Assembly: GCA_030587475.2 (NCBI GenBank)
Contig: JAUQYZ020000125.1
Coordinates: forward strand, 1 to 19,706
Direction: 5' to 3'
Length of the DNA: 19,706 nt
Source: Candidatus Sigynarchaeum calidifontis
Lineage (GTDB): Archaea; Asgardarchaeota; Lokiarchaeia; Sigyniarchaeales; Sigyniarchaeaceae
Every line of letters begins with the position of its first letter. Positions within the stretch are counted from its first letter, which is position 1. The notes beneath the pieces were generated by a model, which was not told the origin of the DNA, did no database searches, and saw only the letters and a list, made by a program, of their open reading frames with translations. Below are positions 289 to 18,128 of the stretch, in pieces. Position numbers and translations under genes: made by a program.

Positions 289-320
289 AAGATGATTACA
301 AGAACAGAGGTTAAAAAGAA

Positions 321-1352: not shown

Positions 1353-1420
1353 TCGGGGTCCAACCTTCATTTCAAGGAGAGAAGGAACTGTCACAAGATC
1401 ACCACCATAAACCGAAAATT

Positions 1421-1449
1421 ATTTATTTTCGTTGCCTTTTTTGTCTTTC
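1421..1449 (+). terminator. Possible T-rich archaeal-type terminator after the ABC ATPase
   Basis: ATTTATTTTCGTTGCCTTTTTTGTCTTTC tract about 70 nt after the stop; it also abuts the next promoter. Confidence 0.3.
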
Positions 1450-1454
1450 ATAGG

Positions 1455-1462
1455 TTTAAATA
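1455..1462 (+). promoter_or_regulatory. TATA box for the PKD/DUF4430/ECF operon
   Basis: TTTAAATA about 75 nt upstream of ATG 1536; AGGTGA RBS-like motif about 10 nt before the ATG. Confidence 0.5.
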
Positions 1463-1535
1463 ACTGGCACAAGATCTCGAGCCGAACCTCGAGCCTCGAT
1501 TCATGACTTTGGAAAGAAGAAGGTGAAAATCGGCA

Positions 1536-2783
1536 ATGCAGAGAAAACCCACAGCGTTCATTATTTCCTTGATTTGCATCTCGACCTTGCTGGCGGTCAT
1601 GCAGCTGAACTTGCCTCGTGCAACAGCTGGTCCGATTCCCACGCCGGCACCGGATGTTTCGTACACGTGGAACGTGCTTGCTTCGAGCGGGGATGTCTGG
1701 TGGTTCAACAATGCTTATGGTGACGAGGGCCATCATGCCATAGAGACGGGCGGGCGCATCACCTACAACTTGACGGGCAAATATCCCAACGATGCATCGT
1801 GGTCGATCATTTCGGGCAACGTCTGGTACGGGAATTTCAGCATATACTATGCCAACGCGACGCTAAACTGGACCAAAACGAACTGCTCGTCGACGGAGGT
1901 CGGGAGCAACCTCGTGCTGAGCGTCTACTCGTGGCAAGGTAGCTTGATCGCCCCGAGTAATTGGTCACAAAACAAGATTGACATGGAATCGCAGCCCGCG
2001 GACCATTTCTTGTACCGGGACATCAGCGACACCATTATCATCGATTACACGTATGGCGGCCAGATCACGCACATGGAATACAACAAGACGACGAGCGTGC
2101 TCACCTATGCCAAGACATCGGCGTTTGGTTTCTCGCTTGAGATCCAGCTCGCGGGCCTGGCGTCCTTGCCCGTGGCAGCCTTGAGCGTGAACGAGAGCAC
2201 CTTGGTCGAGGATTTCCCCGTGCAATTTACCGACATGAGCTTTGCTGGCGTGCGGCCGTACGTATACTCGTGGGATTTTGGAGACGGATATTCATCGCCA
2301 AGCCAAAATCCATCGCATGTTTATGCATCGCCAGGCAGCTATAACGTCAACCTCACGATCACCGACGCGGCATCGAACACGAGCTCGCAAATCCTTTCGA
2401 TCGTGGTGCAAGCCGACACCCTCCCTACCGCCGATTTCATCATGACAGGCACGCCAGGCGTTAACAAGCCCCTCGTTTTCACGAGCACGTCGCATGGTGG
2501 CAACATCGGCCTCACTTTCACGTGGAACTTTGGCGACGGATCCCCGGTTTCACACTTGCAAAACGTGACGCACACGTTCAACCGCACTGGCTCGTTTACC
2601 GTGACGCTCACGGTCCGGGACGTGGACGGGGACGAGGACACCAAGACCCAAGTTATCGTCATCCAAGCGGAGATCCCTGGGGCAGATATTGTTCTGGTGA
2701 CTACGTGCGTGCTGCTAACTGCAGGGATCACGGCAACGATAGTATCTCGGAAAATATCACGAAGCAAACGGCAAGAATCATGA
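1536..2783 (+). CDS. Secreted, C-terminally anchored surface protein with two PKD domains
   Basis: N-terminal signal peptide; PKD motifs YSWDFGDG...PSHVYASPGSYNVNLTITD and TWNFGDG...VTHTFNRTGSFTVTLTVRD; IPG + TM helix + basic tail; many N-x-S/T sequons. Confidence 0.88.
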   Translation: MQRKPTAFIISLICISTLLAVMQLNLPRATAGPIPTPAPDVSYTWNVLASSGDVWWFNNAYGDEGHHAIETGGRITYNLTGKYPNDASWSIISGNVWYGNFSIYYANATLNWTKTNCSSTEVGSNLVLSVYSWQGSLIAPSNWSQNKIDMESQPADHFLYRDISDTIIIDYTYGGQITHMEYNKTTSVLTYAKTSAFGFSLEIQLAGLASLPVAALSVNESTLVEDFPVQFTDMSFAGVRPYVYSWDFGDGYSSPSQNPSHVYASPGSYNVNLTITDAASNTSSQILSIVVQADTLPTADFIMTGTPGVNKPLVFTSTSHGGNIGLTFTWNFGDGSPVSHLQNVTHTFNRTGSFTVTLTVRDVDGDEDTKTQVIVIQAEIPGADIVLVTTCVLLTAGITATIVSRKISRSKRQES

Positions 2784-3199
2784 CCGAGCAGCGAAACACC
2801 AGGGCCATCAACAAAAAGGCGACACTGGTCCTCTTCATCGTGTCTTTTTCATCGCTGGTCGTGGTCTATTCATCTTTAACCTTTTTTCTTGGAGGAAGCA
2901 ATCGAATCGAAACGGACCGCATCACGCTTTCAAACGTCACGGTCTGGGTTTATTTCAAGGAGAAACCACCAGCTCACAAGGAGGGCGTGACCTCCCGCGT
3001 CCTCAACGCGACGGTTTTCGACGTGATGCACGACGAGTTTTCTATCAGGTATAAGCAGTATCCGACGGGGTATTTCATCGAGTGGATCAACGATGCAGGG
3101 CCAAGCTGGACATACATGGTCAACAACGTGTCTCCCCTCATAGCATGCAATAAATTCGTGTTGTCGAATGATTCCGTGATTGTTTGGACACAAGAATGA
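2780..3199 (+). CDS. Membrane-anchored DUF4430 / transcobalamin C-terminal-like protein (possible corrinoid binding)
   Basis: True start is probably ATG 2780 (ATGA overlap with the PKD stop), not 2522. N-terminal TM, then TVFDVM...GYFIEWIND...WTYMVN...L.NDSVIVW, the DUF4430 pattern. Confidence 0.75.
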   Translation: MTEQRNTRAINKKATLVLFIVSFSSLVVVYSSLTFFLGGSNRIETDRITLSNVTVWVYFKEKPPAHKEGVTSRVLNATVFDVMHDEFSIRYKQYPTGYFIEWINDAGPSWTYMVNNVSPLIACNKFVLSNDSVIVWTQE

Positions 3200-3807
3200 T
3201 GGCAATGACCGAAACCACCATGCCGACTACAAGTTCTCGCCTGGCGCGAGATTCGAAAATGACGTTAAAATTGGCGATAGTTGCGAGCTATGCAGGCCTG
3301 AGCGTCGGAGGCGCATACATGCTCACGCTGATTCCGAACATAGAAATATTTTCAGCGCTTCTTTTTCTTGGAGGCATGTTATTTGGGAAGAAATTGGGGG
3401 TGTTCATTGCCCTGGTTGCAGCATTGATATACGGACTCTTCAACATCTATGGAGCGTCCCCGTGGCCCCTCTTGATCGTCCAGCTTGGCTGCTATGCCGG
3501 TTTAGGGCTAATCGGAGGCTTCTGTAAAGAATCGAGAGCCATCCAGCCGATCACCCGACGAACACAAGGAATTTTCGGCTTAATTGGTATAAGTTTCGCC
3601 TTCGTGTACACGATGCTGGCCGACATCATTTTCCCGCTCTTCACGGGGGGACAATACACGATTACCTTGTGGATTCTTTACGGCATGCCAATGCGATTCG
3701 TATTGATGACGTGCGACTTGATCACGTTCAGCCAGCTCGTGCCGTTGGTGTATATCGCGACGGAAAAGCATCTTCGAAGCATATTTCCACACGCGCTGGA
3801 ATTATGA
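3196..3807 (+). CDS. ECF transporter S component, CbrT-like (cobalamin predicted)
   Basis: ATGA overlap with the upstream stop; about 6 TM helices; IPNIE motif followed by LFLGGMLFGKKLG; adjacent to a DUF4430-like gene. Confidence 0.75.
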   Translation: MMAMTETTMPTTSSRLARDSKMTLKLAIVASYAGLSVGGAYMLTLIPNIEIFSALLFLGGMLFGKKLGVFIALVAALIYGLFNIYGASPWPLLIVQLGCYAGLGLIGGFCKESRAIQPITRRTQGIFGLIGISFAFVYTMLADIIFPLFTGGQYTITLWILYGMPMRFVLMTCDLITFSQLVPLVYIATEKHLRSIFPHALEL

Positions 3808-3945
3808 TGGGATCGGCGATCAAGAAGGGGTGATTTCAAGAAGGATGGACGTGTGAGGAGCCATTTCTACATCCTAGCAGAATACCCCGTTCTTGACACC
3901 AACCTTTATTTCAAGCCCACTCCGGTCATCGGATGCCTTGTTGGT

Positions 3946-4989
3946 TTAGACCTTGATGATTGTATCGGCCGCCTTCCGGAGGCGGTTCGCGACTGCCCGC
4001 CCGAGGCCATCTTCGGTCGTGCAGTCAGCGAATATGATGTCGACGCGAAGGTCATCCATTTCCCGGAAAGTGCTAAACAAGTTCCGGGCGACTTGCTCGT
4101 CATTGGCACCGATGCGGCGGCATATCACTCCATCGACTCGGATGTCCATCGTACATGACAGTATCGCGACTTTCTTTGCTTCCCCGGTGGCCGACTTCGC
4201 GAGTGCCATGATCTTTTCAATAACGCGCTCGCGCTGGCCTTCCACGAGAACGAGGGTAGCTTCGGGCGCGTAATGCTTTGTTTTCATGCCCGGCGACTCG
4301 ATCGCCCCCTCTTGCGCTTTACCGCGGGCGGACGGGTGGATATCAACCTGCCCGACGACCGCCTCGATGCGCTCGAGCGGGATCCCGCCAGGGCGGAGGA
4401 GTATTGGCGTTTTCTTTGTCAGATCGATGATAGTCGATTCGACGCCGATGTTCGAATCCCCGCCGTCGATCACCGCGTCGATGCGCCCGTCCAAATCCGC
4501 GAGAACGTGGCTTGCCCTCGTCGGGCTGGGATGCTCGAATAAATTGGCCGACGGCGCCGCGATGGGCACGCCAGATCTCTCGATGAACGCGCGGGCAACG
4601 GGATGGCTCGGCATGCGCACGGCGACCGTGTCAAGCCCCGATGTAACGATGTCTGGAACCCGGGGGGATTTCTTGAACACCAGCGTGAGTGGTCCTGGCC
4701 AGAAAGCCTTCATAAGTGCTTGAGCTGTGCTGCCAACCGCGCCGGGTACCACGAGATTTGCAACCATCGAATCGTTCGACACGTGCACGATGAGCGGGTC
4801 ATCGGCGGGTCGTTTCTTTGCAGCGAAGATCCTCGCTACTGCCGCGGCATCAAACGTGTTCGCGCCGAGACCATAGACGGTCTCCGTTGGAAAGGCAACG
4901 ATGCCACCATTCTTGATGATAGCTGCCGCTGGTGCGACCTGGCCAGCGATGTCCTTGCCGGCCTCGATTTTAAAAACGCGTGTTCTCGT
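3946..4989 (-). CDS. sua5: L-threonylcarbamoyladenylate synthase Sua5 (YrdC + SUA5 domains); start uncertain
   Basis: The frame stays open upstream of the tracked GTG 4788 and encodes TRVFKIE...IIKNGGIVAFPTETVYGLGAN...KKRPADDPLIVH; then PGPLT, AVRMP, APSAN, GVESTIID, LRPGG, PGMKTKHYAP, NRLRKA. No ATG/GTG/TTG lies in frame between TGA 5010-5008 and 4788; ACG 4989 is used as a provisional start. Confidence 0.92.
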   Translation of the reverse strand, partial: TRTRVFKIEAGKDIAGQVAPAAAIIKNGGIVAFPTETVYGLGANTFDAAAVARIFAAKKRPADDPLIVHVSNDSMVANLVVPGAVGSTAQALMKAFWPGPLTLVFKKSPRVPDIVTSGLDTVAVRMPSHPVARAFIERSGVPIAAPSANLFEHPSPTRASHVLADLDGRIDAVIDGGDSNIGVESTIIDLTKKTPILLRPGGIPLERIEAVVGQVDIHPSARGKAQEGAIESPGMKTKHYAPEATLVLVEGQRERVIEKIMALAKSATGEAKKVAILSCTMDIRVDGVICRRIGANDEQVARNLFSTFREMDDLRVDIIFADCTTEDGLGRAVANRLRKAADTIIKV

Positions 4990-5083
4990 CCGCGTGCACC
5001 ATGCCGGTCAAGCATCCGACTTGCAAAAAACATTATCAAGACTCGTGCCCGATACTCTATTCTGTTGAACGAGGTGTTGGAAA

Positions 5084-6391
5084 ATGTGCGATACGATCGT
5101 TGCATACACGAAAGATGGCATGATTTTCGGGAAGAATTCCGACCGGGATCCAGACGAGGTGCAGAACATCGAGATCGTGCCAGCCCAGGATCATCAGGCG
5201 GGCGAGAAGGTCAAGTGCACCTACATCGAGATCCCGCAAGTCGACCACACGCACGAGGTGTTCCTCTCAAAGCCGTACTGGATCTGGGGTGCCGAGATGG
5301 GCGTGAACGATCATGGCGTGTGTATCGGAAACGAGGCTATCTTCACCAAGGTCAAGCCGGTGAAAGAAAAGCGACTCTTGGGCATGGACTTGCTGCGGCT
5401 CGGCCTCGAGCGGGGAAGGACGGCGAAAGAAAGCCTGGACGTGATCGTGGACTTGCTCGTGACGCATGGCCAAGGCGGTAACCACGGGCACTCGCACAAG
5501 GTATTTTACAACAACGAGTACTTGATCGCCGATTGCAAGGAGGCTTACGTGCTCGTGGCCATCGACCGCATGTGGGCCTGGAAACGGGTAACGGGGGCAT
5601 ATAGTATCTCGAACGCGATCAGCTTCGGTACCGATTTCGATGCTGCATCGGACGATCTCGTGAAACACGCGGTGAAAAAGGGCTGGGCATCGGGAAAGGA
5701 AACGCTTGACATGAAGCACTCGTATTCGGCGGGGTTCATGACCCGCATGGCCAAGTCGGATGATCGCGCTGCCTGCACGTTGGCTGCCGTCTCCAAGGAA
5801 GGGCTGCAAGTAACCGACGTCATGGACGCGCTCCGGTCGCACGGCGCCCGGGACGCATCGCCTGGGTATAACCCGATGCAAAACAACAGGATAGCCGTTT
5901 GCGCCCACGAAACCAGCATCACGAGCCCTTCCCAGACGACCGGCTCCATCGTGGCATGGTGCCCGCCTTCGGGGGACTTCCATGTATTTGCCACAGCATC
6001 GAGCACGCCGTGCGTGTCCACGTTCAAGTACGTGTATTCGAAGGCCGCGAGATTGCCGGCGTCGTACAAGCCAGGAACAAAGCAGCCCGACCGTGTCGCG
6101 TATTGGTGGAAGTGCGAGCGGGCGAATCATATTGCTATGCTGCATTATCAAAAGTTTATCGAGGAGATCGTGCCCGATCGACGCCAAATCGAGAAAGAGA
6201 TGGTTGCAAAGGTGCTTCAAGGCAAGGGTTCGCAGGATCTCGTGGATGAATCGTTCGCCAAGGCAGATGCCTTGATGAAAAAATTCACCAAGAAGCACGA
6301 GATCGAGCCACCAGAGCCGGCTGCTAAAAAAGGCGCGAAGCACCTCCGGAAACTCGACGCGAGAACAGGCCTGCTCTCGCTGCACCCGTGA
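5084..6391 (+). CDS. Peptidase family C69 (dipeptidase/secernin-like Ntn hydrolase)
   Basis: MCDT N-terminal Cys nucleophile, GKNSDRDPDE, CTYIEIPQV, WIWGAEMGVNDHGVCIGNEA, LLGMDLLRLGLERG; GAGGTG RBS at 5071-5076. Confidence 0.9.
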   Translation: MCDTIVAYTKDGMIFGKNSDRDPDEVQNIEIVPAQDHQAGEKVKCTYIEIPQVDHTHEVFLSKPYWIWGAEMGVNDHGVCIGNEAIFTKVKPVKEKRLLGMDLLRLGLERGRTAKESLDVIVDLLVTHGQGGNHGHSHKVFYNNEYLIADCKEAYVLVAIDRMWAWKRVTGAYSISNAISFGTDFDAASDDLVKHAVKKGWASGKETLDMKHSYSAGFMTRMAKSDDRAACTLAAVSKEGLQVTDVMDALRSHGARDASPGYNPMQNNRIAVCAHETSITSPSQTTGSIVAWCPPSGDFHVFATASSTPCVSTFKYVYSKAARLPASYKPGTKQPDRVAYWWKCERANHIAMLHYQKFIEEIVPDRRQIEKEMVAKVLQGKGSQDLVDESFAKADALMKKFTKKHEIEPPEPAAKKGAKHLRKLDARTGLLSLHP

Positions 6392-6438
6392 TGCTCACGG
6401 ACGAGATTCTTCCATTATCCAATTTTCATCTCGTTCGA

Positions 6439-7230
6439 TCAGTTACCGGAAGAAAGCCGCTCTGCGGCGATGATCGCCGAACCCAAGGCACCCGTGATCT
6501 GGGGATCCTTGGGGAGATATATCTTGGAGCCTAATTCCTTCTCGAGAGCGCGCACCATGCCCTGGTTCTTCGCCACGCCGCCGCAAAACACGACATCTGG
6601 GATAACGCCCATCCTACGAACCATCCCGTTAACGCGCGACGCGATGGCACGGTGCAAGCCGTGGATGATGTTGGGCTTGGACTCGCCGGATGCGATGAGG
6701 CTGATGACCTCTGACTCGGCGAATACCGTGCACGTCGACGATATCGTGACCTCCTTGGTCGATTTTGAATCGAGATCCCCGAGATTATCAAGTTCCACGT
6801 CGAGCGTTTTTGCCATGACCTCCAGGAACCGCCCAGTGCCTGCAGCGCACTTGTCGTTCATCTGGAAATCGAGCACCTTTCCCCCCTTGCCGAGCAAGAT
6901 GACCTTCGTGTCCTGGCCACCCATGTCGATGACGGTCTTGGCATTCGGGAGAAAGTAAGCAACGCCCTTCGCGTGGGCCGTGATCTCCGTGACAGGCGCT
7001 TGACCATAGATGTCCTTGATCGAGTGGCGGCCGTAGCCGGTGCCGAGGATCGAATTCACGTCCTTCATGGTCAAGTTCTGTTTCTTCAACATCTCGTCGA
7101 CGAGCTCCTTCGCGCGTTCTTTAAAGGAATGGCGACTGCGCTCTATCACATAATCCAGGATCGCATTGTCCTTGAGAAGTACAACCTTGGTAGCGAGCGA
7201 TCCGATGTCGATACCGACTGTGATCGTCAT
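6439..7230 (-). CDS. 2-hydroxyacyl-CoA dehydratase activator (HgdC / BadF-BadG-BcrA-BcrD ASKHA ATPase, [4Fe-4S])
   Basis: Start at ATG 7230 (MTITVGIDIGS); TGYGR, TEITAH, DMGGQDTK, MNDKCAAGTGRFLE, ISSTCTVFAESEVIS, GGVAKN, TGALG. Confidence 0.92.
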   Translation of the reverse strand: MTITVGIDIGSLATKVVLLKDNAILDYVIERSRHSFKERAKELVDEMLKKQNLTMKDVNSILGTGYGRHSIKDIYGQAPVTEITAHAKGVAYFLPNAKTVIDMGGQDTKVILLGKGGKVLDFQMNDKCAAGTGRFLEVMAKTLDVELDNLGDLDSKSTKEVTISSTCTVFAESEVISLIASGESKPNIIHGLHRAIASRVNGMVRRMGVIPDVVFCGGVAKNQGMVRALEKELGSKIYLPKDPQITGALGSAIIAAERLSSGN

Positions 7231-7382
7231 GAACGCTGTCCTCGTGAAGTAAGCTACAAAAGCTCGGGGCGATAATAAACCCGGCCTGGAGCATGGCCGG
7301 GTCAATCTCTCCCGAGAACCATTCAACCTTCTGGAACCGCAGTATGTTTTTTTATGGAACAGCTCCCCATCATGACTCGATT

Positions 7383-9239
7383 ATGCCAGCTCAGGAAATC
7401 CGCGGCTATTCACTTTCCTTGTACCATTTCAACCTGCAATATGTTGCGGGTAACCTGGCCGCGTATCATGCCCTTGCCACGAAAAGTTTCCGCCCGTTCC
7501 TTGATTTCTACATGGCATATCCCCAGTTCAAAGCATCGTGCGAAATTCAAGGCCATTTCATCGCCTTCCTGGGACGTTACTACCGGGACGACCTGGCCAA
7601 GCTCGTCGAGCTCGTCATGAAGCGGAAACAGATCGAGCTCGTTTCGGTGCATTATTCCGACCAGATATATCTCGCATACCCGCGCCGAGACATGGAAGAG
7701 TCCATACGTATTAATGATGAGACCCTCGCTCGATACGGCTTGGTTCGCGGTGGTACTTTTTTCGCGCAAGAGAATTTTTTCGGCCCTGGCATCATACCGC
7801 TCATGAAGGAGCACGGGTTCAAGGTCGCCTTGCTCAATCGCCATTATTTGCGGCATTATCAAGGCGAGCTCCCCTCCGTGCCGTACTACGAGCGAGACGG
7901 GGTATATTTCCTGCCCGGCGGCGGCTTCACGGCGAGGGACAAGGAACGGCTCGGTGCCGGGTACGAACACGTGCCAGAAGTCGGATACGATTACTGGGGC
8001 GACGGCGAGCTCGCGTTCACGAAGGGAAGCAATTACTTGCCCGGACACGGGCCGAGCGAGGCGAAGCGGCTCAAGCGGTTGGCCCTCTACATCAATCGCC
8101 ACAAGAGCGGGTTCAGGACCGAGTTTTGCACCGCTTATGTTGACAAGTTGCTGGAGCTCGGCGTGAAGCCGGCGCCGCTGCCGCTCGTGCTGGACGGTTC
8201 CTGGAACTATCCATCGTACGGGGGCGTGTACTTGTGGATGGGACGGTACCGGCTACCTTGGGAAAGGGACGGCCACGTGCGAACGCACACGTTCGTTACG
8301 CGAGCTCGTGTCCTCGCCGCGGAAGCGCTTGTCTCCCATGTACAGCTGGTTCCGTGGGACATCACGAAAACACTCAAGATGGCATGGCGCCACTTGCTGC
8401 TTGCCGAGGTTTCGGACTCCACGGGGCAGACACCCGTCCCGATCGAGGTGCAATACTCGTTCATGGAATCTGGCAAGGCAAGGGATGCCGCGGACTACGT
8501 GATCGCTTGGACCAGGGGTCAATTAGGCATCCCACCAGGCGCGAAGGTGCTGGTCGATTGCAAAACGAAGGGTTTCGAGATACTGGATGACAACGCTTTC
8601 CGGGATCTCGTTTGGCAAGAAGCGGGGAAGGCTTCGAGCCTCTCGAACCTCGAGCGTGACGTGGGTACCTTGCACGCGTCCGCGTGGAACGTGAAGCGCG
8701 GCCGCCTTTCTGTGGCCAAGCCACCGCGTTCGTCCAAGAACCTCATAGAATACTACATCTACTTCGACCACGTTGGCCGCCCGTCCCGTGTCTTGAGCAG
8801 GCTCATGGGCATCGCCAGGTCGAACGGGAAATTCGGCTACCACGCGATGTATGACAAGCATTTTTCCAACTTCGTCGGTTTCACGTTGCCACTAAAGCAA
8901 GATCGCATCATCGCGTCGCTGGCACTTGATGAAGGCCGCGTCGTCGACCATGCGATTGATGAGTTCAAGATCGATGAAACGATCGGCAAAACCTTCTTAC
9001 CACTGCCGAATGGACTGGTCGGCATTGGTGACGACGTGTACATCATCAAGCACAACCTCCACGGCAACACTCACGTTGCCGCCACGATCAACGTGCGGGA
9101 GAAGACGGTCGGATTCCTCCAGGACAACCCCCCGAGCAGGATGCGTACCGAGTGGAAGTTTTCTATCGTGAAAGGGCCTCCCCAGGCAGTTATTGACCGT
9201 GCAAACGAGATCAACGTGTGGCCAAATGTTCTTGTGTGA
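7383..9239 (+). CDS. Divergent glycoside hydrolase family 57-like protein
   Basis: Segments resembling the five GH57 conserved regions, in order: HFNLQY, QIELVSVHYSDQI, FFAQEN, GDGELAF, AEVSD. Start could be 7293, 7344 or 7383; no signal peptide. Confidence 0.62.
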   Translation: MPAQEIRGYSLSLYHFNLQYVAGNLAAYHALATKSFRPFLDFYMAYPQFKASCEIQGHFIAFLGRYYRDDLAKLVELVMKRKQIELVSVHYSDQIYLAYPRRDMEESIRINDETLARYGLVRGGTFFAQENFFGPGIIPLMKEHGFKVALLNRHYLRHYQGELPSVPYYERDGVYFLPGGGFTARDKERLGAGYEHVPEVGYDYWGDGELAFTKGSNYLPGHGPSEAKRLKRLALYINRHKSGFRTEFCTAYVDKLLELGVKPAPLPLVLDGSWNYPSYGGVYLWMGRYRLPWERDGHVRTHTFVTRARVLAAEALVSHVQLVPWDITKTLKMAWRHLLLAEVSDSTGQTPVPIEVQYSFMESGKARDAADYVIAWTRGQLGIPPGAKVLVDCKTKGFEILDDNAFRDLVWQEAGKASSLSNLERDVGTLHASAWNVKRGRLSVAKPPRSSKNLIEYYIYFDHVGRPSRVLSRLMGIARSNGKFGYHAMYDKHFSNFVGFTLPLKQDRIIASLALDEGRVVDHAIDEFKIDETIGKTFLPLPNGLVGIGDDVYIIKHNLHGNTHVAATINVREKTVGFLQDNPPSRMRTEWKFSIVKGPPQAVIDRANEINVWPNVLV

Positions 9240-9265
9240 ACGTGGCCGAATGACGTTTCTTGATG

Positions 9266-9272
9266 TTTTTTT
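9266..9272 (+). terminator. Oligo-T terminator candidate after the GH57-like gene
   Basis: T7 run 27 nt after the stop, in a 63-nt convergent gap. Confidence 0.4.
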
Positions 9273-9302
9273 AACCAGAGCAGGGAGAACGGTTTTTCTT
9301 CC

Positions 9303-10562
9303 CTAATCGATGGCTTGCTTCCCGAGCTCGTCGATGGTTTTCAAGACACCCTCGCCCTTGACGGTGAGAACATGGTACTTGCGTCCCTCAGTTTCCTTGA
9401 TCTCGATGATGTCGTCATCGACGAGGCGCTGGGCGTGGTACCGGATCGTCTTTTTTTCGACGTCGAGGATTGACGCGAGCTCGGCTTGGAATTTCGGGCC
9501 CTCGTCCTTGATGAGACGCAAGATGCGCAGCGCCGTCTCGTTTTTCATCAACTTTACCGCGTCAAGATAGAGCGGGAGATCATTTTTGATTGGAAGCCGG
9601 GGAAAATAAGCATTGTATTGACCGACTTTTTCCATCTTGACGAGCTGGTAGTCCATTAGGATCTGCAAGTGCCACGAGAGCGCGCCGGAATCGAGGTTTA
9701 CCTGCCGCATGAGCTCGTTGAGGTGGATGCCGGGCTGGGAGAGCACGAGGTCGAGGATTTTCTCGCGCACGGGATGCTGGACCGCCTTTTCAAACGACAT
9801 GCGATGGATCCGGACACCCTCGCCGCGCACTTTAATCGCTGCATTGCGGAAGTAATCGACCTTCGATATCACGAGCCCTGTGACGCCAACGACGGCGACG
9901 ACCGCTACGATGATGACGATCCACCAGTAGTCGAAAGGCGTGTATTGCTCGACGATCGCGGCATAGGACGACGCGGTCACGGTCGTGTAGAGGTCGTCGC
10001 CCGAGATCTCGGTCGATGACAGCGTCCACGGATCATCCACGGACGCCGCCACGTCCTTCGTGATCCAACGCAACATGTTTTTCTGTGGCGCGAGTCCACC
10101 AAGCGCCGCGCCGAGTCGCGTCGTCCCTTGTGTATTGTTCGACTGGATACGGAATGCCACGCCGAAAGAGAACTTGTACCGTGCCCCCTGTGAATTCAGC
10201 ACGTTCACGTCCTGCCCCGCCGAGAGGCGGCGGTCGGGGAAGTCCCGCTCCATCGTGAAATCGATATCGAGAGCACCCGGTCCCGAGATGTTGAGAAAGA
10301 TCTCCTGGTTGCGGAGGTTGTTGTTGATCGTGATGGTCAAACTCGTGGTCACGTTGGCTCGGGCGTGGACAGTGATAGACATAAATGTTATGTCTTGCGG
10401 GATGCCGGGAGACAAGGAAACGGTCGTGGTATAACCGGAAACGTAGCGTGGTTCAGCGAGCATGAACATGCCAAGCCCGACGAGCACGCTCAAGAAGACG
10501 ATACTCGCCTTCCGCCGGATCCCGCTTTTTTCCCTCACGCGATTCCACTCGTTAGTTATCAT
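9303..10562 (-). CDS. Transmembrane one-component regulator: signal/anchor, beta-rich ectodomain, TM helix and cytoplasmic tandem winged-HTH (archaeal COG3398-like)
   Basis: Probable start ATG 10562 (MITNEW...RRKASIVFLSVLVGLGMFML); TM WWIVIIVAVVAVVGVTGLVI; wHTH1 HPVREKILDLVLSQPGIHLNELMRQVNLDSGALSWHLQIL; wHTH2 TALRILRLIKDEGPKFQAELASILDVEKKTIRYHAQRL. Confidence 0.85.
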   Translation of the reverse strand: MITNEWNRVREKSGIRRKASIVFLSVLVGLGMFMLAEPRYVSGYTTTVSLSPGIPQDITFMSITVHARANVTTSLTITINNNLRNQEIFLNISGPGALDIDFTMERDFPDRRLSAGQDVNVLNSQGARYKFSFGVAFRIQSNNTQGTTRLGAALGGLAPQKNMLRWITKDVAASVDDPWTLSSTEISGDDLYTTVTASSYAAIVEQYTPFDYWWIVIIVAVVAVVGVTGLVISKVDYFRNAAIKVRGEGVRIHRMSFEKAVQHPVREKILDLVLSQPGIHLNELMRQVNLDSGALSWHLQILMDYQLVKMEKVGQYNAYFPRLPIKNDLPLYLDAVKLMKNETALRILRLIKDEGPKFQAELASILDVEKKTIRYHAQRLVDDDIIEIKETEGRKYHVLTVKGEGVLKTIDELGKQAID

Positions 10563-10574
10563 GTCGTGTATGGT

Positions 10575-10584
10575 AAAAAAAAAA
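10575..10584 (-). terminator. T10 tract between the two ectodomain genes (possible leaky terminator)
   Basis: A10 on the + strand (T10 on the coding strand), 17 nt after the stop at 10601. Confidence 0.4.
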
Positions 10585-10600
10585 TATGGGGAATAGAAAT

Positions 10601-11290
10601 TTACTGGATCGCCTTGCGCTTCTTGATCAAGACGCCGACGACGCCCGCGGCCGCCGCGATGGCGACGAGCAAGCCGATCGTCTCGATGCCGATGGCATTC
10701 TCGGTCTGGAGCAGCGTCCACACGGAGAAGTGGTTGACGACGGCGACGGCCTCGCCGTTGGCCGTCGTGGTCGGGACGACCTCCCAGGCATCCACGTCCT
10801 CGTTGTAGAACGCCCACGTGTACCCGCTTGCATCGCCAACTTGTGCCCGCAGCCTGGCCTGGAAAGTCGTGCAGTTGCACGTGATGTTGGCCATGAAGCC
10901 ATAGTTCACCCGGTACCGGGCTTGCGTCCGTGTCTGGACCGTGTTGCCGTTCTGGAGACCGAGCTCAGCGCAGGTCTCCCGGCAAGTGATGTTCAACTCG
11001 CAGTCCGTGCTGCAATCCAGGTCGATCGCGATGGATTTATCGCCGATCGCGTCCGCGTCGACATCCATGTTGAGCGTCAAGTCCGACGTGGTGTTGAACT
11101 GCAACCGGACGTGGGCGCGGAACCGGAACGCAATGGTTTCGCCGGCATTCATGTGCTGGGTCGAGAGATTGGTGTTTATTGGTACCTCGGGAACCACGGC
11201 TTGGACGATTGGGCTCGCGATCATGACGGCCAGGAAGATGCTTACGAAGGCCAGTCCGAGTATGGCAGTGGTTGTCTTTTTCATGTGCAT
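10601..11290 (-). CDS. Secreted, C-terminally membrane-anchored protein with Cys-rich ectodomain and membrane-proximal HFS motif
   Basis: Signal peptide MKKTTTAILGLAFVSIFLAVMIASPIVQA; W...W...VNHFSVWTLL; TM IGLLVAIAAAAGVVGVLI + KKRK; GGTGA RBS; alternative start 11284. Confidence 0.85.
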   Translation of the reverse strand: MHMKKTTTAILGLAFVSIFLAVMIASPIVQAVVPEVPINTNLSTQHMNAGETIAFRFRAHVRLQFNTTSDLTLNMDVDADAIGDKSIAIDLDCSTDCELNITCRETCAELGLQNGNTVQTRTQARYRVNYGFMANITCNCTTFQARLRAQVGDASGYTWAFYNEDVDAWEVVPTTTANGEAVAVVNHFSVWTLLQTENAIGIETIGLLVAIAAAAGVVGVLIKKRKAIQ

Positions 11291-11306
11291 TTTTTTTCAC
11301 CATGTG

Positions 11307-11378
11307 GCAATTGGATTTAATTGCAAGTAGGTTCTCACAATTGTATATTTAAAGAATTGAGGGGGGGTTTTTCCCCCC
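11307..11378 (-). promoter_or_regulatory. Promoter of the ectodomain pair: TATA box with flanking inverted repeats
   Basis: TTTAAATA on the - strand at 11353-11346; G7-T5-C6 dyad at 11361-11378; GCAATT-N6-AATTGC at 11307-11324. Confidence 0.55.
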
Positions 11379-11472
11379 GTGGTTAAACCCGATTTTCACC
11401 GGCAATCAAAATCGTTAAATCCCCGACTCCGAATCATCTACTCGCATCAACAAACCAGAAAGGGTGAATCTC

Positions 11473-11769
11473 ATGGTCGAGTCGTTCGCCGTGATATCAA
11501 AAGCTGGCTGTCATAAATGCGAGGATCTCAAGGCATGGCTGAAGAACAACAACGTGAAATTCGAAGAGTGGAGTCTCGAAGATGAGGCCGTTAAGAAGAA
11601 GCTGATCTCGGATCCCAAGTTCACGGACAAGTTTTGCGACATTGACGGGTGCATGGTGTACACCCCGGTCATCCGCTTGGCCAGGTCGGGCGATTATTAC
11701 TTCAAGGAACTCTTCAACCAATCGGGCTTGCGTGTGGACGCAGTCAAGAAGATATTGAAGATGAAATGA
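11473..11769 (+). CDS. Glutaredoxin/NrdH-like thioredoxin-fold protein (CHKC) with extra CDIDGC motif
   Basis: VISKAGCHKCEDLKAWLKNNNVKFEE and cis-Pro-like TPVI; GGTGA RBS at 11463-11467 supports ATG 11473. Confidence 0.8.
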   Translation: MVESFAVISKAGCHKCEDLKAWLKNNNVKFEEWSLEDEAVKKKLISDPKFTDKFCDIDGCMVYTPVIRLARSGDYYFKELFNQSGLRVDAVKKILKMK

Positions 11770-11787
11770 AGACAAGTCAGTCGGATC

Positions 11788-12183
11788 CTATTCCTCTTTT
11801 TTATTAAGACCGAGGGCCTCGCACCGGGCTATCCATTTTACCTTGTACGACGCGTCGTCGATGATGCGGCCTGCCAGGTCCGCGATCGTGCGGATGCTCT
11901 CTTGGTGGCACCAATCGAGGCATTGGAGATATGTCCCTATGTCAAGCTCCGAGTCGTCCCAGTACGCCGCGATCTCGACGAGCCCGCGCTTCCACGCCAG
12001 GAATGCGCGCGTGTGGCCGTCAGTAAACGCGATCGCCCCGTGCAACCTCGTGACGGGCACGGGCTCCATCCTGGCCTTGGTGCCGGGTGGGTACCGCGTT
12101 TCGAGGGCGGCGAGCTTCCGCTCGTTGATGTAGAGCTGCGTCGGCCGGGCAGCGAGGAGTGGAAGGGGGAATGTTATGACCAT
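11788..12183 (-). CDS. Small ParB/sulfiredoxin-fold-like protein of unknown function
   Basis: PTQLYI...PVPV...FTDGHTRAFLAW pattern resembles the ParB/Srx core; C-terminal YLQCLDWC...WIARC. Confidence 0.6.
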   Translation of the reverse strand: MVITFPLPLLAARPTQLYINERKLAALETRYPPGTKARMEPVPVTRLHGAIAFTDGHTRAFLAWKRGLVEIAAYWDDSELDIGTYLQCLDWCHQESIRTIADLAGRIIDDASYKVKWIARCEALGLNKKEE

Positions 12184-12323
12184 GTCTTAGCTTGGGAAGC
12201 ATAGCCGGCCAATCAACCTAACGGCATAAGAGAAACCAGCATTGATGCGATAATCTATAATCGAAGCGTTCAATAAATCGGATGGGATGAATCAGCTCAG
12301 CAAGAACGAAGGGGTTTTGTGAG

Positions 12324-12617
12324 ATGAAAAAGATCCAGGTCATCGGTGTTCCGAATTCCAAGAAAGTGCGGGAACTATCGGAGTTTCTCAAGAAGAACAA
12401 GGTCAAGTACACGCTCTGGTCTATTGACGACAGCGATGTCAAGCGTAGATTGCTTGATGACGAAAAGTTTACCGAGAAATACTGCGATGTGTTGGGCTGT
12501 ATGTCCAAATTGCCGATGATACGACTTGATGACACCGGCGAGTACATCGCTGAAGATCTGTTCAAGGGCGATGTGCTACAAGTCGACGCTACTCGGAGGG
12601 TTATCGGGCTGGGATGA
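12324..12617 (+). CDS. Glutaredoxin-fold paralogue lacking CxxC but retaining CDVLGC
   Basis: Collinear with 11473-11769 (LKKNKVKY..WS.DD..VK..L..D.KFT.K.CD..GCM...P.IRL...G.Y...LF); SKKV in place of CHKC. Confidence 0.78.
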   Translation: MKKIQVIGVPNSKKVRELSEFLKKNKVKYTLWSIDDSDVKRRLLDDEKFTEKYCDVLGCMSKLPMIRLDDTGEYIAEDLFKGDVLQVDATRRVIGLG

Positions 12618-12665
12618 ACGAGTTCCGCAAAATCCTTTTTTTCACCCTTATCGGAGTTTTAAATT

Positions 12666-13802
12666 ATGAACAAGTTCGACAAGGCAGCCGGCCTCCTCAA
12701 GCAGCGAGGCATCGATGGATGGCTCATCGCATGCAACGAGGGCAGCGATATGCATTCCCCGTATTTTCTTGGCATCAAGTCCCACGCCCGCCATTTCATA
12801 CTCATCGATGCAAATGGCAACCATCAAGTCATTGCCGTGCTCATGGAGGCGCCGATGATAAAGAAGGCAATCGATGCCATGAAGGCGAACGTTACCGTCC
12901 GGGCATTCAATACTGGCGAGGAAATGCTCGTATTACTCAAGGATGTACTGAAAAAGCCGACCATAGCCGTGAATTACGGGGAGGATTCCTTGCAGAAAGC
13001 GACCGGCTACGCCGACTACATCAAGGCCGGCGAGCTCCAGAGCTTGCGGCTCATAGCCCCGGGCACGCGTTTCGTCTCGGCCGCCGACTTGATCGAGGGC
13101 ATGCGCGCGGTGAAGACGCCTGACGAGCTTGCCTCGTTGAGGGAGGCCGTCAAGATGACGATGGAAGTCTTCGAGTCGATACCCGAGTGGACCAAGGTTG
13201 GCATGACCGAGCAAGAGGTCATGGCGAGGTTGCATTACGAGTTCTTCAAGATCGGGGAGCCATCATTCGAGGCCATCGTTGCATCGGGCGAGAACACGGC
13301 CGACCCGCACCACAACTCCAGTAGCAAGCGGATCACCCCCGGTGCATTTTTGGTGGACGCGGGGGTGCGGTACGGGCAGATGAGCTCGGACATCACGTGG
13401 ACCTTCTGGATCGGGGGAAGGCCACCGCAGGAATTCCTCGACGCCTACGACGTGCTCTATGAAGCGAAGAAGATCGCCAACGAGCACATGCACGCGGGAT
13501 TGCCAACTGCACTGCCTGACCAGGAATGCCGCAAGTACCTTGAATCGAGAGGCTACGATCACAAGAAGCTCTTCGTGCACGGACTCGGCCATTCTATAGG
13601 TTACGATGTCCATGACGTCGGTCCCAGGATATCCGCCTCCGCGCGGCCCGGCGATATCTTTAAAGAGAATATGGTCTATTCAAGCGAGCCTGGTCTTTAT
13701 TGGCAAGGGACATGGGGCTTGCGCCTCGAGGACGACATCATCATCAAGAAGGACACGTGCGAGCAGGTCTCCTATAACCATAAGGATCCTATCGTGTTTT
13801 GA
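12666..13802 (+). CDS. Xaa-Pro aminopeptidase/dipeptidase, peptidase family M24B
   Basis: MRAVKTPDE, IVASGENTADPHH, VDAG..Y....SDITWT, HGLGHSIGYDVHD, SEPGLY, GLRLEDDI; TTTAAAT just upstream. Confidence 0.92.
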   Translation: MNKFDKAAGLLKQRGIDGWLIACNEGSDMHSPYFLGIKSHARHFILIDANGNHQVIAVLMEAPMIKKAIDAMKANVTVRAFNTGEEMLVLLKDVLKKPTIAVNYGEDSLQKATGYADYIKAGELQSLRLIAPGTRFVSAADLIEGMRAVKTPDELASLREAVKMTMEVFESIPEWTKVGMTEQEVMARLHYEFFKIGEPSFEAIVASGENTADPHHNSSSKRITPGAFLVDAGVRYGQMSSDITWTFWIGGRPPQEFLDAYDVLYEAKKIANEHMHAGLPTALPDQECRKYLESRGYDHKKLFVHGLGHSIGYDVHDVGPRISASARPGDIFKENMVYSSEPGLYWQGTWGLRLEDDIIIKKDTCEQVSYNHKDPIVF

Positions 13803-13835
13803 TTAAAGCGCATCAAGAGAAGAAAATCGGGAATG

Positions 13836-16800
13836 TTAATGTTCCGGCTCGAACCGGACCACACGCTTGGCCACGATCGCCGCCGGGCCGATCAAACCCG
13901 CTGGCATGAGAGGTCTCCCCTTGTGATGCCGATAGGGCTTGCCTTCCTTGCCTTTTTTCGCGTACCCGACGAGTGCATTTCGTAGCGTGCAATGCACGAC
14001 CACCTCGATCAAGTTTTCCCCCTCCTGGATTAGGCCGGTCACGTTCACCCGGTAAGGTGGAACAAGCAATGTCGCTGCATACTTTCCGTTCACTTTGACC
14101 TCTGCGACATCGTGCACGAGACCAAGATCGAGGAACAACTTGATATCCTTGGCTAGGTGAGCCGTCACCGGTTGGAACGTGGTCGTGTAAATGCCGGGCC
14201 CTGATACGTGGCGCAATTGCTTGTTTGATCGCCAGTCTCCAAGGCGGGTTGCGTCTAGCTTTACTGTGATCACCTTCCCGTCTATCTCCCGGTGAGAAAC
14301 CTCCAACCGCCAGATATCGAGCACGACGGGGGCAGGTGGTGCCGTGACCATCTCGGTCATCTCGCGCCCGTCGCTGAACGTCGCCCGGAAAATGCCGCCG
14401 TTCTCCACCTCCGCGATGAATGCCTTGCCATCACGCGATAGCTCGAGCTCGGCCTCGTTGACGTGCATCGCCGGCGTGCCGGGTAGTGCACTGGCCGGGA
14501 ACCAGATCATGCGCGACCCGTAGGGTTCCAGGAACAGATCAATGGTTTGCTTGTCCATGCTTCGACCCAGCGAAACCGTGGCCTTGCGCAGTGTCGCGGG
14601 CTGGTACATGGTCACTGGTTCCACTTTCCCCGTCCACAAGTCGATGTAATAGGGGATCTTGCCCGCCTCTCTGAACCCGACCGAGTGCCGCGTGGCAACG
14701 GGGGATGTAGAGCGGATGAAATAGAACCGGCCGTCAGGAGTCTCCTTGCAAATCGAGTGCAGGTCCGGATTGGCCTTGACGAAATCGATGTTGGGTACAA
14801 CGTGCAGTTCACCCCATAGCGTCATGCCCACGTCCTTGCCGCGCTCCACGAAGATAAACTCGTTTTCTCCTATGGAATTGACGATAGCTTGGATCTTTGG
14901 GTCATTCTTTGCTGCATCGAGGAACCCGGGCTGGCCGTCCGGGATGGTACCCGTGAAGATGATCTTGATGCCGGCTTTCCTGCAATCCCGCAGCTTTTCG
15001 GCGAGCGGGAGCGTGATCTTTTCGATGCCGGGAAAGATGATCACTTCCAGAGCGGCTTGTCCAACACGCAATTTTCCCTCGTCGATCCTTCCCGCGAGCA
15101 ATGCCTCGTCGTTCACGTAGGTGTAAAAATACCCGCGGGCCGCGAGCTGCTCCCCGAGCACGTGATAGCCGAGCGTGAGCCGGTCGATGCGATTGGAGAC
15201 CCGCTGCAAGAACCAAGCGATCGGCCCGCGTGGTGGCGGCCCGTCGAAACCATCGAGCCATCCAGCGACGAGATCTTCTTTCTTGGGCACCTTGTGGTCA
15301 AAGTTCCAGTGCGGGTAATACACGCCGACATTGCAGCGGGTGATGCCTTGCTGCATGATGTACTGGAGCCGGGTCACGTACGCGTTTATAGCCGGGAAAA
15401 ATGCCCAGAACGGGTTGTGATGGTTCAAGTTCGAGCTGTATTTCGGCGGTGACCACGGGTAATGGCCGGGAAAGGCCTTCCACGGGACGTCGGGCCCGTA
15501 CGGGAAGCCGTGGTAGATCATCTGGTTGATGCCGGCGACGGCAAGCTTGTCTGCGGCGACCTTGATCTTGAACGGCGTGGTCATGTAGTCCCGGTCCATC
15601 CACACGAGCGATTCCGATGTCACGAGGGGCTTGTTGTAAATGATGCCGGCCGAGCCCGCGACCTTCAAGAAAGCCGTGATGCCTCCGGCGAAGAGCTGCT
15701 CGGTCTCTGGAATGTCGGCAGCACCGTAGGCCTTGAGTAAATCGACACGGATGCCGTATGCCTGGATGCGATGCTGCAAGCCATGATCGCGAGCAAGCCG
15801 GGCGATCCCGCCGCAGTACCGCTCGGCAAACAGGTCAGATAGCGTCTCCTCCCAGTCGTGGCGGATTCGCTCGCCATCGCCGCCTACAAAGTCATAGCAC
15901 GGTTTTTCATTCATGACCGCGACGTAGGTGAACTGGTTGTCACGGTTCGGCACATAGCATACCGGGAGGTATGGTCGCACGTCGTACCCGCGACGCTTCT
16001 TGAACTCATCGAAAAAATCTCCGGTCCAATACCACTCGCACGAGATCTCTTGGCTATCTGTGAAGAGTGCCCGCAAGGTTTTGCCCGCGTGTGGCTTCCA
16101 GCAAGCCATCCCTGTTCCCACGTGGCCATCGAAAAACCGCTTCAACGCGATCTCGTTGAACATGTCAACGACCCGGCTCTCTGCAGTGGGCGCGGACTTG
16201 GCATCCGAGATCGGGGTCATGCCGCTCGGCCCCGCGTAGACCGCGAAGATTTGCCACTTGCCTGGCGGGGCGTCCCACGAGATCCACGACGGGTCGTTTC
16301 CTTTCGGGGTGATGTCGACGGCAGTGGCGATATCCAGCGGCGCGGCCTTGGGTTTGAAAAAATTCATCTTGGTTCGCGGCTTGCCAACTGGTTTCACCGC
16401 GACGACCGCGACCGGCTTGAACTCTGCAGGATCAAACCACGGGTTGTGATTGCCGGCGAGTTTCCTGACGAGACCTGGCTTGAGAGCCACCGGCACCTGG
16501 AACGGCGGGACCTTCATCTCGATCCTCGATCCCCCGTTCACGACGACCGATCCCATTAGCAATGTCCGCATGGAGTCATCGCGGGACACCCAACTGCCGC
16601 CCGGAGGCCATGCAGATGAGATCGTGAGATCGATCACGAGTCCAAGGCGCTCGGCCTCCGCGAGCGCTGCTTTAACGGCCTCGAAATAATACGGGTGCGG
16701 GGCGAACCGGTGCTTCAGATCCTCGTTCGGATCCGGAGTGCCGATGCAGAAAGCTTGCACCTCTGCCCCGCCGAACCCGCGATCTTCTAACTCTTGTAAT

Positions 16801-16907
16801 TCCCTGATCAGCTCGCTCTTTTCCACGTCGACGCCGGGCCACCACCAGCGCACCATGGGGCGGTATTTCTTCGGTGGTGCGGCGATGTTTTCCAAGAGAT
16901 CAGACAT
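13836..16907 (-). CDS. Glycoside hydrolase family 106-like (alpha-L-rhamnosidase-like) with C-terminal GH2-type beta-sandwich
   Basis: [88 protein letters not shown]...PPYRVNVT...[9 protein letters not shown], GLIGP; start ATG 16907 or GTG 16916. Confidence 0.82.
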   Translation of the reverse strand: [1023 protein letters not shown]

Positions 16908-17141
16908 GCCCTTCACGATCCGCGTTATTATCTATCATTTCCTATCAAGAGGAATTAACGATTGTGTCTTGAGAGGATGAAAGGACGAATGTGCGATGCT
17001 CGATAGGATTTTCCCCATTTCACGAGAGCATAGTTGAGCTTTGTTTCGTTATTGGTACCTTGAAGTTATCCCGCTGCCTTTTTTGTCGAAACTGCCGGGA
17101 CGAGCTTGGAAAGCGCCCTGGGAAGTCTTAACAAGAGAATA

Positions 17142-17231
17142 GCATGTTATATATACATGCGAGTGAAACACACTATCGCGGATATCATTAGATGGCAACA
17201 TGACGATGTTACGACATTTTAATTCAAAATG
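17142..17231 (+). promoter_or_regulatory. Promoter/operator region of the amino-acid ABC operon
   Basis: TTATATA box embedded in GCATGT-N7-ACATGC (17142-17160); further dyads AACAT-N4-ATGTT (17197-17210) and CATTTT-N5-AAAATG (17215-17231). Confidence 0.5.
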
Positions 17232-17286
17232 CAATATCAATGACACCTTCTAGCCAATTTGTTCGCCCAACTGGCACGTGAAACAC

Positions 17287-18105
17287 ATGGCCTCGCGCAA
17301 TCTCCTCAAGATCGTCATCGTGACGATCATTTGCTCCGGGTTGACGAATTCCGGGGTTTTTCTGTTCCTTTATTATGTTGAAAACAATCCGAATGAAACA
17401 ACGCTCGAGCGCGTGATGCGGAAGGGCGTGATACGACTTGGAACCAGCCCGGACTATCCGCCTTTCGAGTCGATACAACAGACCGGTCAAGGCTTAACCG
17501 TAGTAGGTTTTGACATCGAGCTCGCCAAGCTCCTCGTCGCCAACCTTTCCCAGCATTTGAATCGAGAAGTCAAGCTCGAGATCGAGGCCGGTTTCTTCAA
17601 CGCGCTCATGGCCGGGTTGCAATCAAATTCCTATGACATTGTCATCGCGGCTTTCGCCATCCGGCCGGAACGCGAGCTCCAGGTCGATTTTTCGGTGCCG
17701 TATTACTACAGCCAGCAATGCTGCCTGGTGCGGGCCAACGATTACAGCATCGCCAACGAGTCTGACCTCGCAACGAAGAAGCTCGCCGTGCAAACGGGGA
17801 CATCAGGGGAGGAACTCGCGGGCGGTATCGCGTGTGCGGGAAAGCAATCCTTCCCCACGGTCGACATGATACTGATCGACATCATGAAAGGCGATTCCGA
17901 CGCGGCGATCATCGACATCCCGGTCGCACAACACTTGGCAAGAGCAGGCAACGTGAAGATCGCCTTTAACTTTACCCAGCCCCCTGAAGGGTTCGGGGTC
18001 GCGATGCGTGAAGGGGAAGGGGGGTCCATCATCATGGGCGTCTTCAACAGCACGATCGCCTGGTTAAACGCCACGGGACAGCTACAAACCCTTTTTAACA
18101 CGTGA
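17287..18105 (+). CDS. Polar amino-acid ABC transporter substrate-binding protein (family 3), N-terminally TM-anchored
   Basis: IRLGTSPDYPPFE, VGFDIELAK, ERELQVDFSVPYY, LAVQTGTSGE, DAAIID; start ATG 17287 or GTG 17278. Confidence 0.9.
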   Translation: MASRNLLKIVIVTIICSGLTNSGVFLFLYYVENNPNETTLERVMRKGVIRLGTSPDYPPFESIQQTGQGLTVVGFDIELAKLLVANLSQHLNREVKLEIEAGFFNALMAGLQSNSYDIVIAAFAIRPERELQVDFSVPYYYSQQCCLVRANDYSIANESDLATKKLAVQTGTSGEELAGGIACAGKQSFPTVDMILIDIMKGDSDAAIIDIPVAQHLARAGNVKIAFNFTQPPEGFGVAMREGEGGSIIMGVFNSTIAWLNATGQLQTLFNT

Positions 18106-18128
18106 GATAGGAACGGGAACCGAATGAA

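Follow-up and report, generated by a model that had tools for sequence, protein, structure and literature searches.

MAIN domains are cut at HF|S, and the resulting fragments stay associated (Brogan and Rudner, bioRxiv 10.64898/2026.05.12.724683). The same study names BAC as a MAIN-containing protein; it states that no signalling mechanism is linked to the anchored C-terminal MAIN fragment and does not mention Asgard archaea. In NLRP1 and GPR56, residues 1212 and 382, respectively, are the known scissile residues, lying directly before the cut. ToxR carries an N-terminal OmpR-type winged helix-turn-helix (wHTH) in a type II topology; its gene comes first, and its partner is of unrelated fold. 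Lokiarchaeial cells have no ordered S-layer, bear unidentified surface densities and crawl by a balance of adhesion and detachment.

Here we analyzed a window of 19,706 nt, positions 1 to 19,706 (forward strand) of contig JAUQYZ020000125.1 from Candidatus Sigynarchaeum calidifontis. Two neighbouring genes of the window, termed A and B, join parts of known kinds, namely, a MAIN-like domain (the most likely assignment), a transmembrane regulator and an activator-type promoter, in a combination that was not found in the literature searched. Across most of an Asgard order, one copy of a MAIN-like domain is joined to a transcription factor, and a second, bare copy that probably cleaves itself is its partner. 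The pair may be the first case in which a MAIN-like microbial fold is connected to signalling into the cell.

Architecture and conservation of the A-B pair

The first-pass annotation had described two co-oriented genes 38 nt apart, both encoding a signal or anchor segment, an ectodomain and a transmembrane (TM) helix, the second with a cytoplasmic tandem wHTH. All of this held. Both genes lie on the reverse strand (A, 11290-10601; B, 10562-9303) with a gap of 38 nt, both products have two hydrophobic segments (about 5-38 and 198-225 in A, about 17-39 and 207-238 in B), and B contains PF24266 at residues 265-322 and PF13412 at residues 341-387. The features of A are as follows.

10601..11290, (-): gene A (229 aa), encoding a signal peptide, a single GAIN/ZU5/MAIN-like beta-sandwich, a TM helix and a short tail of basic residues
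11198..11290, (-): predicted signal peptide of A, residues 1-31; the pattern suggests a cut after V-Q-A
10700..11194, (-): ectodomain of A, residues 33-197; all-beta in the model, pLDDT mostly >90
10724..10732, (-): H187-F188-S189 of A, predicted self-cleavage site F|S, ahead of the last beta strand
10619..10690, (-): C-terminal TM helix of A, then KKRK, from hydropathy and the model
11298..11302, (-): ribosome-binding site GGTGA, 7 nt 5' of the A start

The signal peptide of A and a C-terminal surface anchor directly after the domain are both present. A consists of the domain alone, without N-terminal adhesion or enzyme cargo, and its relatives are single or tandem copies, some of them ending in tails like Loki- or Heimdall-CTERM that score under the cut-off. 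Searches of Pfam, NCBIfam and PDB sequences returned no family name for A. Near-identical proteins carry the label Ca. Sigynarchaeum springense, Lokiarchaeia. The A gene of a single-contig genome (G011, L029:2393-2994) appears frameshifted near its start, through a sequencing error or as a pseudogene. The contrast in cysteines that had been pointed out, six in A and none in B, is correct for this pair and is not a family trait: A ectodomains hold 0-9, mostly 1-3, and B ectodomains 0-1. A disulfide-based difference between A and B was rejected for this reason.

The features of B are as follows.

9303..10562, (-): gene B, 419 aa from the first ATG (or 411 aa from the GTG at 10538); signal peptide, ectodomain without HFS, TM helix, amphipathic helix, tandem wHTH
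9942..10445, (-): ectodomain of B (residues 40-207), paralogous to that of A, with A-S-S in place of HFS
9852..9929, (-): TM helix of B plus conserved I-S-K-x-D-Y juxtamembrane motif
9348..9779, (-): tandem wHTH of B, HVO_0163-N type plus HTH_24

The public gene call for B (P0099) has 411 aa, which fits the GTG start at 10538 and a gap of 62 nt to A. A TM segment and a DNA-binding domain are found in one chain, as in transmembrane regulators, and B is, by its sequence and models, a type I transmembrane regulator with a C-terminal tandem wHTH that is predicted to bind DNA. No other strong member of the wHTH family of B was seen in this genome, where related double-wHTH proteins without a TM helix also occur.

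We then asked how the two ectodomains are related. Local alignment of the A and B ectodomains scored 58, against a maximum of 57 in 3000 shuffles. HHalign comparison of the family profiles gave 99.6% (E 1.5e-23), and 99.5% (E 4.9e-22) when restricted to the ectodomains, bearing out the paralogy that had been noticed by eye. In a quick tree, which is unrooted and gives no order of events, a single branch (SH-aLRT 96) sets 59 B ectodomains apart on one side; P0059, a chimera with ribosomal S2, is in alignment A1 and was left out of the tree. These sequence comparisons are consistent with one old duplication behind the A and B ectodomains.

The co-occurrence of the two genes, proposed as a check at the outset, was evident. 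Gene A is present in 57 of 61 genomes of the order, and in a profile search 135/154 genomes of the order matched, a few solely at weak, B-like scores. B lies directly 3' of A on the same strand in 55 of the 57 Lokiarchaeia genomes with A, while the genes flanking the pair vary between genomes. The two genomes without adjacency are that of L. ossiferum, in which a two-domain A gene and B are about 2.9 Mb apart, and G059, in which the contig with B stops shortly upstream of that gene. A full-length B is likewise missing from the four genomes that have no A; in one of them (G044) the apparent absence is probably an assembly gap, with box matches (see below) at two contig ends. Both cultured Lokiarchaeia checked have the module: P. 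syntrophicum has two A genes followed by B (DSAG12_02936, DSAG12_02937, QEE17106.1), and L. ossiferum has NEF87_003083 and NEF87_000619. In the main texts and the portions of the supplements covered for MK-D1 and L. ossiferum, these locus tags were not found. Most Loki-type Asgard archaea thus keep, next to one another, a gene for a small surface protein, whose fold is likely to be the self-cutting one known from adhesion receptors of animals, and one for what appears to be a membrane-bound gene switch with an uncuttable copy of the same fold.

Some A copies are duplicated, tandem-repeated or extended by Cys-rich insertions, with no B neighbour. In orphan A paralogues of family f4 (L060:1900-3105, L061:1899-2780, L062, L063, L064, L066; P0067), a long Cys-rich repeat insertion with metallothionein-like units such as C-x-C-D-C-E-C-Q-C sits in the loop matching residues 138-140 of the window's A; HFS is lost in two of them (L064, L066), and the promoter box is kept in all. 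Weaker matches in other Asgard families are surface proteins in which one to three domains end in HFS or HTS; in the loci read, these proteins had no neighbour with a B ectodomain. Surface proteins of only 2-3 tandem HFS-ending domains occur in other Asgard groups and probable Bathyarchaeia (L078:481-2046, L072:1501-2808, P0014, P0062, P0066, P0076), and each of their repeats could self-cleave. Another Asgard family has a TM plus double-wHTH gene directly 5' of a gene for a surface protein composed of two HFS-ending domains (L071:3-659 and 853-1941), a similar pairing in reversed order.

Elsewhere in the window, two small related glutaredoxin-like ORFs (11464-11769 and 12324-12617, both on the forward strand) share K-F-T-x-K-x-C-D-x-x-G-C; the former contains C-H-K-C and matches PF00462 at the cut-off, and the latter is without C-H-K-C. 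A Sua5/TsaC-like frame (3946-4980, reverse strand) is open well 5' of the listed GTG at 4788 with no in-frame ATG, GTG or TTG there, which probably reflects a non-standard start codon or a sequence error. Genes for a PKD-domain surface protein, a DUF4430 protein and a probable ECF-type S component are consecutive at 1536-3807 (forward strand), a row that looks like a vitamin or cofactor uptake module.

Fold of A and its predicted self-cleavage

The main difference between A and B, absent from the first reading, is an HFS motif (10732-10724) found only in A. H187-F188-S189 is the most conserved motif of A: H is present in 65 of 66 A homologues, F in 63, and S in 64, with T in the other 2. H-x-(S/T) is kept in 65/66, in the turn preceding the last strand, and 65/66 sequences show conservative changes only. 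In contrast, this catalytic motif is present in 0 of 47 aligned B proteins, whose ectodomains do retain the pattern of the fold. Outside that 47-member set, the motif is kept in P0073 and P0029. P0073, a B-type regulator that has HFS, follows the A-type P0058 in one divergent lineage, which sits on a long branch that cannot be placed and may be either ancestral or a later copy from A. P0029 joins an A-type ectodomain to a B tail; it comes from one 2.5-kb contig and nests among A proteins, so that it may be a recent fusion or a misassembly, and it was given little weight. The B ectodomain also diverges fast, since a search with it finds 6/61 genomes, compared to 57/61 for full-length A.

The AlphaFold model of A is an all-beta sandwich with a mean pLDDT of 86. 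In two fold searches with this model, GAIN and FIIND/ZU5 domains ranked first at Z 6-7, under the value of 8 below which the tool calls matches common, and with Foldseek E values of >0.01. The GAIN matches were CELSR1 (Z 7.0, 3.2 Å, 128 aligned), CD97 (Z 6.8, 4.5 Å, 137 aligned) and BAI2 (6.5), and the FIIND/ZU5 matches were NLRP1 (6.3), CARD8 (6.2) and ankyrin (5.9). Such model-based scores are middling and alone would not settle the identity of the fold. However, structural alignments of the A model to cleaved chains stop at F188, and this residue superposes on NLRP1 1212 and GPR56 382. The A profile also matches an SLH-anchored bacterial surface protein with three HFT/HLT domains just ahead of the SLH anchor (E 2e-11), which itself has a weak ZU5 match, and the C-terminal end of the BAC model. 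Thus, the middling fold matches taken with the conservation of HFS, the placement of F188 at the scissile position and the profile links to BAC and the SLH protein suggest that A most likely consists of a MAIN-like domain alone, carried by a TM helix, and cleavage is predicted at its HFS motif. Neither the shared GAIN/ZU5/MAIN-like fold nor A as the copy predicted to cleave itself had been recognized in the first reading. By shape, the A model matches B-type Atlas clusters (TM 0.66 and 0.49), and a Bathyarchaeia-dominated Atlas cluster is likewise similar to A. In the fold search with full-length B, the matches were filled by the wHTH.

Promoter box and expression of the pair

Three elements outside the coding regions bear on the expression of the pair.

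11358..11375, (-): operator-like box, candidate B binding site, directly 5' of the BRE/TATA; consensus GGGRA-A-A-x-T-R-T-x-CCTCA
11346..11353, (-): TATA box (TTTAAATA) of A, with a purine-poor BRE position ahead
10575..10584, (-): T10 run separating A from B; its sequence suggests that it is probably an oligo-T terminator or attenuator of the archaeal kind

The GGGA-N-CCTCA box was found in all 46 A upstream regions examined, four bases 5' of the TATA box. Since the box model was trained on these 46 sites, recovering them is circular, and the informative part is the absence of the box elsewhere. In a scan of this genome, the window site scored 29.9 bits, and the second-best site, at 18.8 bits, was at the level of shuffles. 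A wide regulon was therefore rejected for this genome, as only the window site lies above shuffled controls. In five genomes of family f2 (three of them single-contig), all 8 matches precede A genes or the relocated B of L. ossiferum, and the reversed control yielded no matches. Orphan A paralogues retain the box. Variants of it are found at the neighbours of second B paralogues and, in family f4, ahead of a few other genes.

The box is thus conserved and stands at a fixed distance 5' of the weak BRE/TATA of the preceding gene, as in the TFB-RF1 layout, and the BRE position of A is purine-poor compared to the VRAAA consensus. From its linkage to the pair, we consider the box a candidate binding site of B, which, by analogy with the TFB-RF1 arrangement, would most likely activate A. 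The early suggestion that the regulator might act on the surface protein itself gains from the conserved box at the A promoter, and B probably controls that promoter. In nearly all loci inspected, an oligo-T run lies 3' of A, so that read-through probably yields B in smaller amounts than A.

Several loci with box variants or B paralogues were also seen. In two f4 genomes (L095, L098), a 113-115 aa protein with a Cys motif (C-P-K ... C-x-x-C ... C) follows a box variant, and a large secreted protein does so in L097. Second B paralogues (L047-L051) lie 3' of a gene for a 182-196 aa N-anchored protein with a variant of the box upstream; the one such protein tested had no Pfam match. A third group of B paralogues (L052, L054, L055) is divergent from genes for repeat-rich surface proteins of 600-710 aa, which have a signal peptide and a C-terminal TM helix, and in L054 a box variant points at the surface gene beside the B paralogue.

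A possible feedback module and its relation to known systems

The best explanation of the pair, which we put forward tentatively, is a two-gene feedback module for a sheddable surface protein. In its first step, which we consider highly probable, A would be exported, anchored by its C-terminal helix and self-cut at F188|S189 through an N-O acyl shift of the GAIN/MAIN type. The two pieces would remain joined until force or unfolding removes the 155-residue outer part, after which one beta strand would stay on the TM helix of A. In a second step that appears probable and is modelled on TFB-RF1 acting at its upstream gene, the tandem wHTH of B would bind the box by the weak BRE/TATA and activate the A-B unit, with the oligo-T run holding B scarce relative to A. 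The third step, to which we give a little more credence than doubt if the others are granted, is that B would sense whether A in the membrane is intact, shed or aggregated. It would do so either with its own, uncleavable version of the fold or by way of the TM helices, so that synthesis of A would be matched to its loss from the surface.

The feedback module is favoured by the probable single duplication, A-B adjacency amid varying flanks, the leading GAIN and ZU5 fold matches, the alignment at F188, the BAC/SLH profile links, the distribution of the box and P0073. Against it, B paralogues with the same ectodomain adjoin unrelated surface proteins carrying box variants, and the fast drift of the B ectodomain is untypical of a fixed binding partner. 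Moreover, unlike described MAIN proteins, A offers force neither an adhesion nor an enzyme domain to act on, box variants lie at other f4 genes, these genomes encode further double-wHTH proteins, and the fold Z-scores of A are under 8. Complex prediction of the A and B ectodomains scored 0.00, gave no verdict and was counted neither way. The homotypic ectodomain contact envisaged in the first-pass annotation is weakened, since B paralogues also pair with unrelated surface proteins. Of the duplicated signalling module proposed there, the paralogy, the co-occurrence and the transmembrane regulator stood; a paralogous partner next door is not required, as indicated by the B-type paralogues beside unrelated surface proteins and by the distance of about 2.9 Mb between A and B in L. 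ossiferum.

The main rival shares the first two steps and differs in what B senses: with a duplicated and repurposed ectodomain, B would perceive an outside cue (a ligand or envelope stress) and switch on A, which would be a sheddable surface glycoprotein, with no return signal. We regard this regulator-and-target arrangement as possible, if doubtful. It fits the unlinked A and B of L. ossiferum, the fast drift of the B ectodomain and the B paralogues whose apparent targets are unrelated neighbours with box variants, either N-anchored proteins of 182-196 aa or surface proteins of 600-700 aa, and a layout of target then activator occurs without paralogy in pf1089/tfb-rf1. However, it does not account for the retention in B, throughout the order, of the complete fold of the very protein it would regulate, nor does it explain why P0073 has an HFS ectodomain fused to a wHTH.

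A could also be an obligate co-receptor or stabilizer of the ToxS/TcpH kind, forming a heterodimer with B that responds to a third signal and controls a wider gene set. Tight A-B linkage and the single-pass topology and similar ectodomain size of both proteins would agree with this, and partners of bacterial TTRs act in this way in the portion of the TTR literature covered here. Yet the box occurs at hardly any gene but A, the strong translation signal of A and the oligo-T run behind it suggest an excess over B, and A occurs duplicated, in tandem or with Cys-rich insertions where the B neighbour is missing; this makes such a co-component improbable. A Notch-like release, in which B is trimmed and then cut in the membrane so that a soluble double wHTH reaches the DNA, would suit the type I topology with its C-terminal DNA-binding domain, and a rhomboid would be a suitable protease for that topology. 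Rhomboid matches were found in 40/40 relatives (weak in two of the three closest), and this genome encodes related double-wHTH proteins without a TM helix. Nevertheless, we consider such release very improbable: the priming self-cleavage motif is absent from B (0/47), a protease gene is a conserved neighbour nowhere, a presenilin-type SPP match was found in 1/41 genomes and is weak, and many TTRs work while still in the membrane. Three genomes of the P. syntrophicum genus have a rhomboid gene at a distance of 6-10 kb from the pair (G021:C1:2686595-2686990, G025:C108, G029:C274), which may be plain local synteny.

A bolder reading of the pair would be an Asgard-archaeal mechanosensing or shedding-sensing pathway in which a self-cleaving GAIN-like surface protein sends its signal across the membrane via a catalytically dead paralogue fused to a transcription factor, a reading that we hold to be rather unlikely. 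Were it true, eukaryotic relatives that crawl and have no wall would use the logic of adhesion GPCRs, with DNA binding as the output. If only the first two steps hold, there is still a conserved family of surface proteins and one of the few predicted Asgard regulator-operator pairs. The candidate operator renders cleavage, DNA binding and coupling directly testable.

Among known systems, A resembles the MAIN domains of B. subtilis YfkN and S. agalactiae BAC (bioRxiv 10.64898/2026.05.12.724683), which have a GAIN_B-like beta sandwich, the fold predicted for A, with HFS before the last strand. Like A, MAIN proteins have a signal peptide and the domain beside a C-terminal surface anchor, and weak sequence links connect A to BAC and an SLH-anchored protein. 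MAIN proteins average 158 kDa, whereas A is a bare 229 aa anchored by a TM helix and carries neither adhesion nor enzyme cargo, and here a motif-less paralogue is fused to a transcription factor. The GAIN domains of adhesion GPCRs (CD97, CELSR1, BAI2/3, GPR56) and the ZU5/FIIND domains of NLRP1, CARD8 and ankyrin have an equivalent scissile position and leave the last strand on the membrane part, similarly to what is predicted for A. In contrast to these proteins, A has neither GAIN_A helices nor a 7TM region, and the response would come from a DNA-binding domain that belongs to a second paralogue and is not released by a cut in it.

On the regulatory side, the pf1089/tfb-rf1 operon of Pyrococcus furiosus (PMC5937170) shares with the pair a membrane-protein gene followed by the regulator gene (TFB-RF1, PF1088) and a box at a fixed distance 5' of a weak BRE/TATA. 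The likeness is one of arrangement; the TFB-RF1 box is another palindrome, TCTG-N5-CAGA, unlike the A box, and PF1089 has four TM segments and no paralogous ectodomain, unlike A (PMC5937170). ToxR/ToxS, TcpP/TcpH and other TTRs (PMC10269533) share a gene for a single-pass wHTH regulator next to one for a single-pass partner. In B, unlike in ToxR, the topology is type I, the tandem wHTH is C-terminal and ArsR/MarR-like, and the upstream gene encodes the partner, which is a paralogue. Since the wHTH pair lies C-terminal, after the TM helix, and its Pfam matches are HTH_24 and HVO_0163_N, the pair is, by topology and domain type, no member of the ToxRS group. Finally, RsgI/SigI systems with SEAL domains (bioRxiv 10.1101/2023.06.27.546760) also have a self-cleaving extracytoplasmic domain that is proposed to sense force and control transcription. 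The SEAL domain of RsgI has a SEA-like fold, and there the signalling protein is the one that is cleaved, with intramembrane proteolysis as the consequence, whereas in the A-B pair the cleavable and the DNA-binding functions would reside on two proteins.
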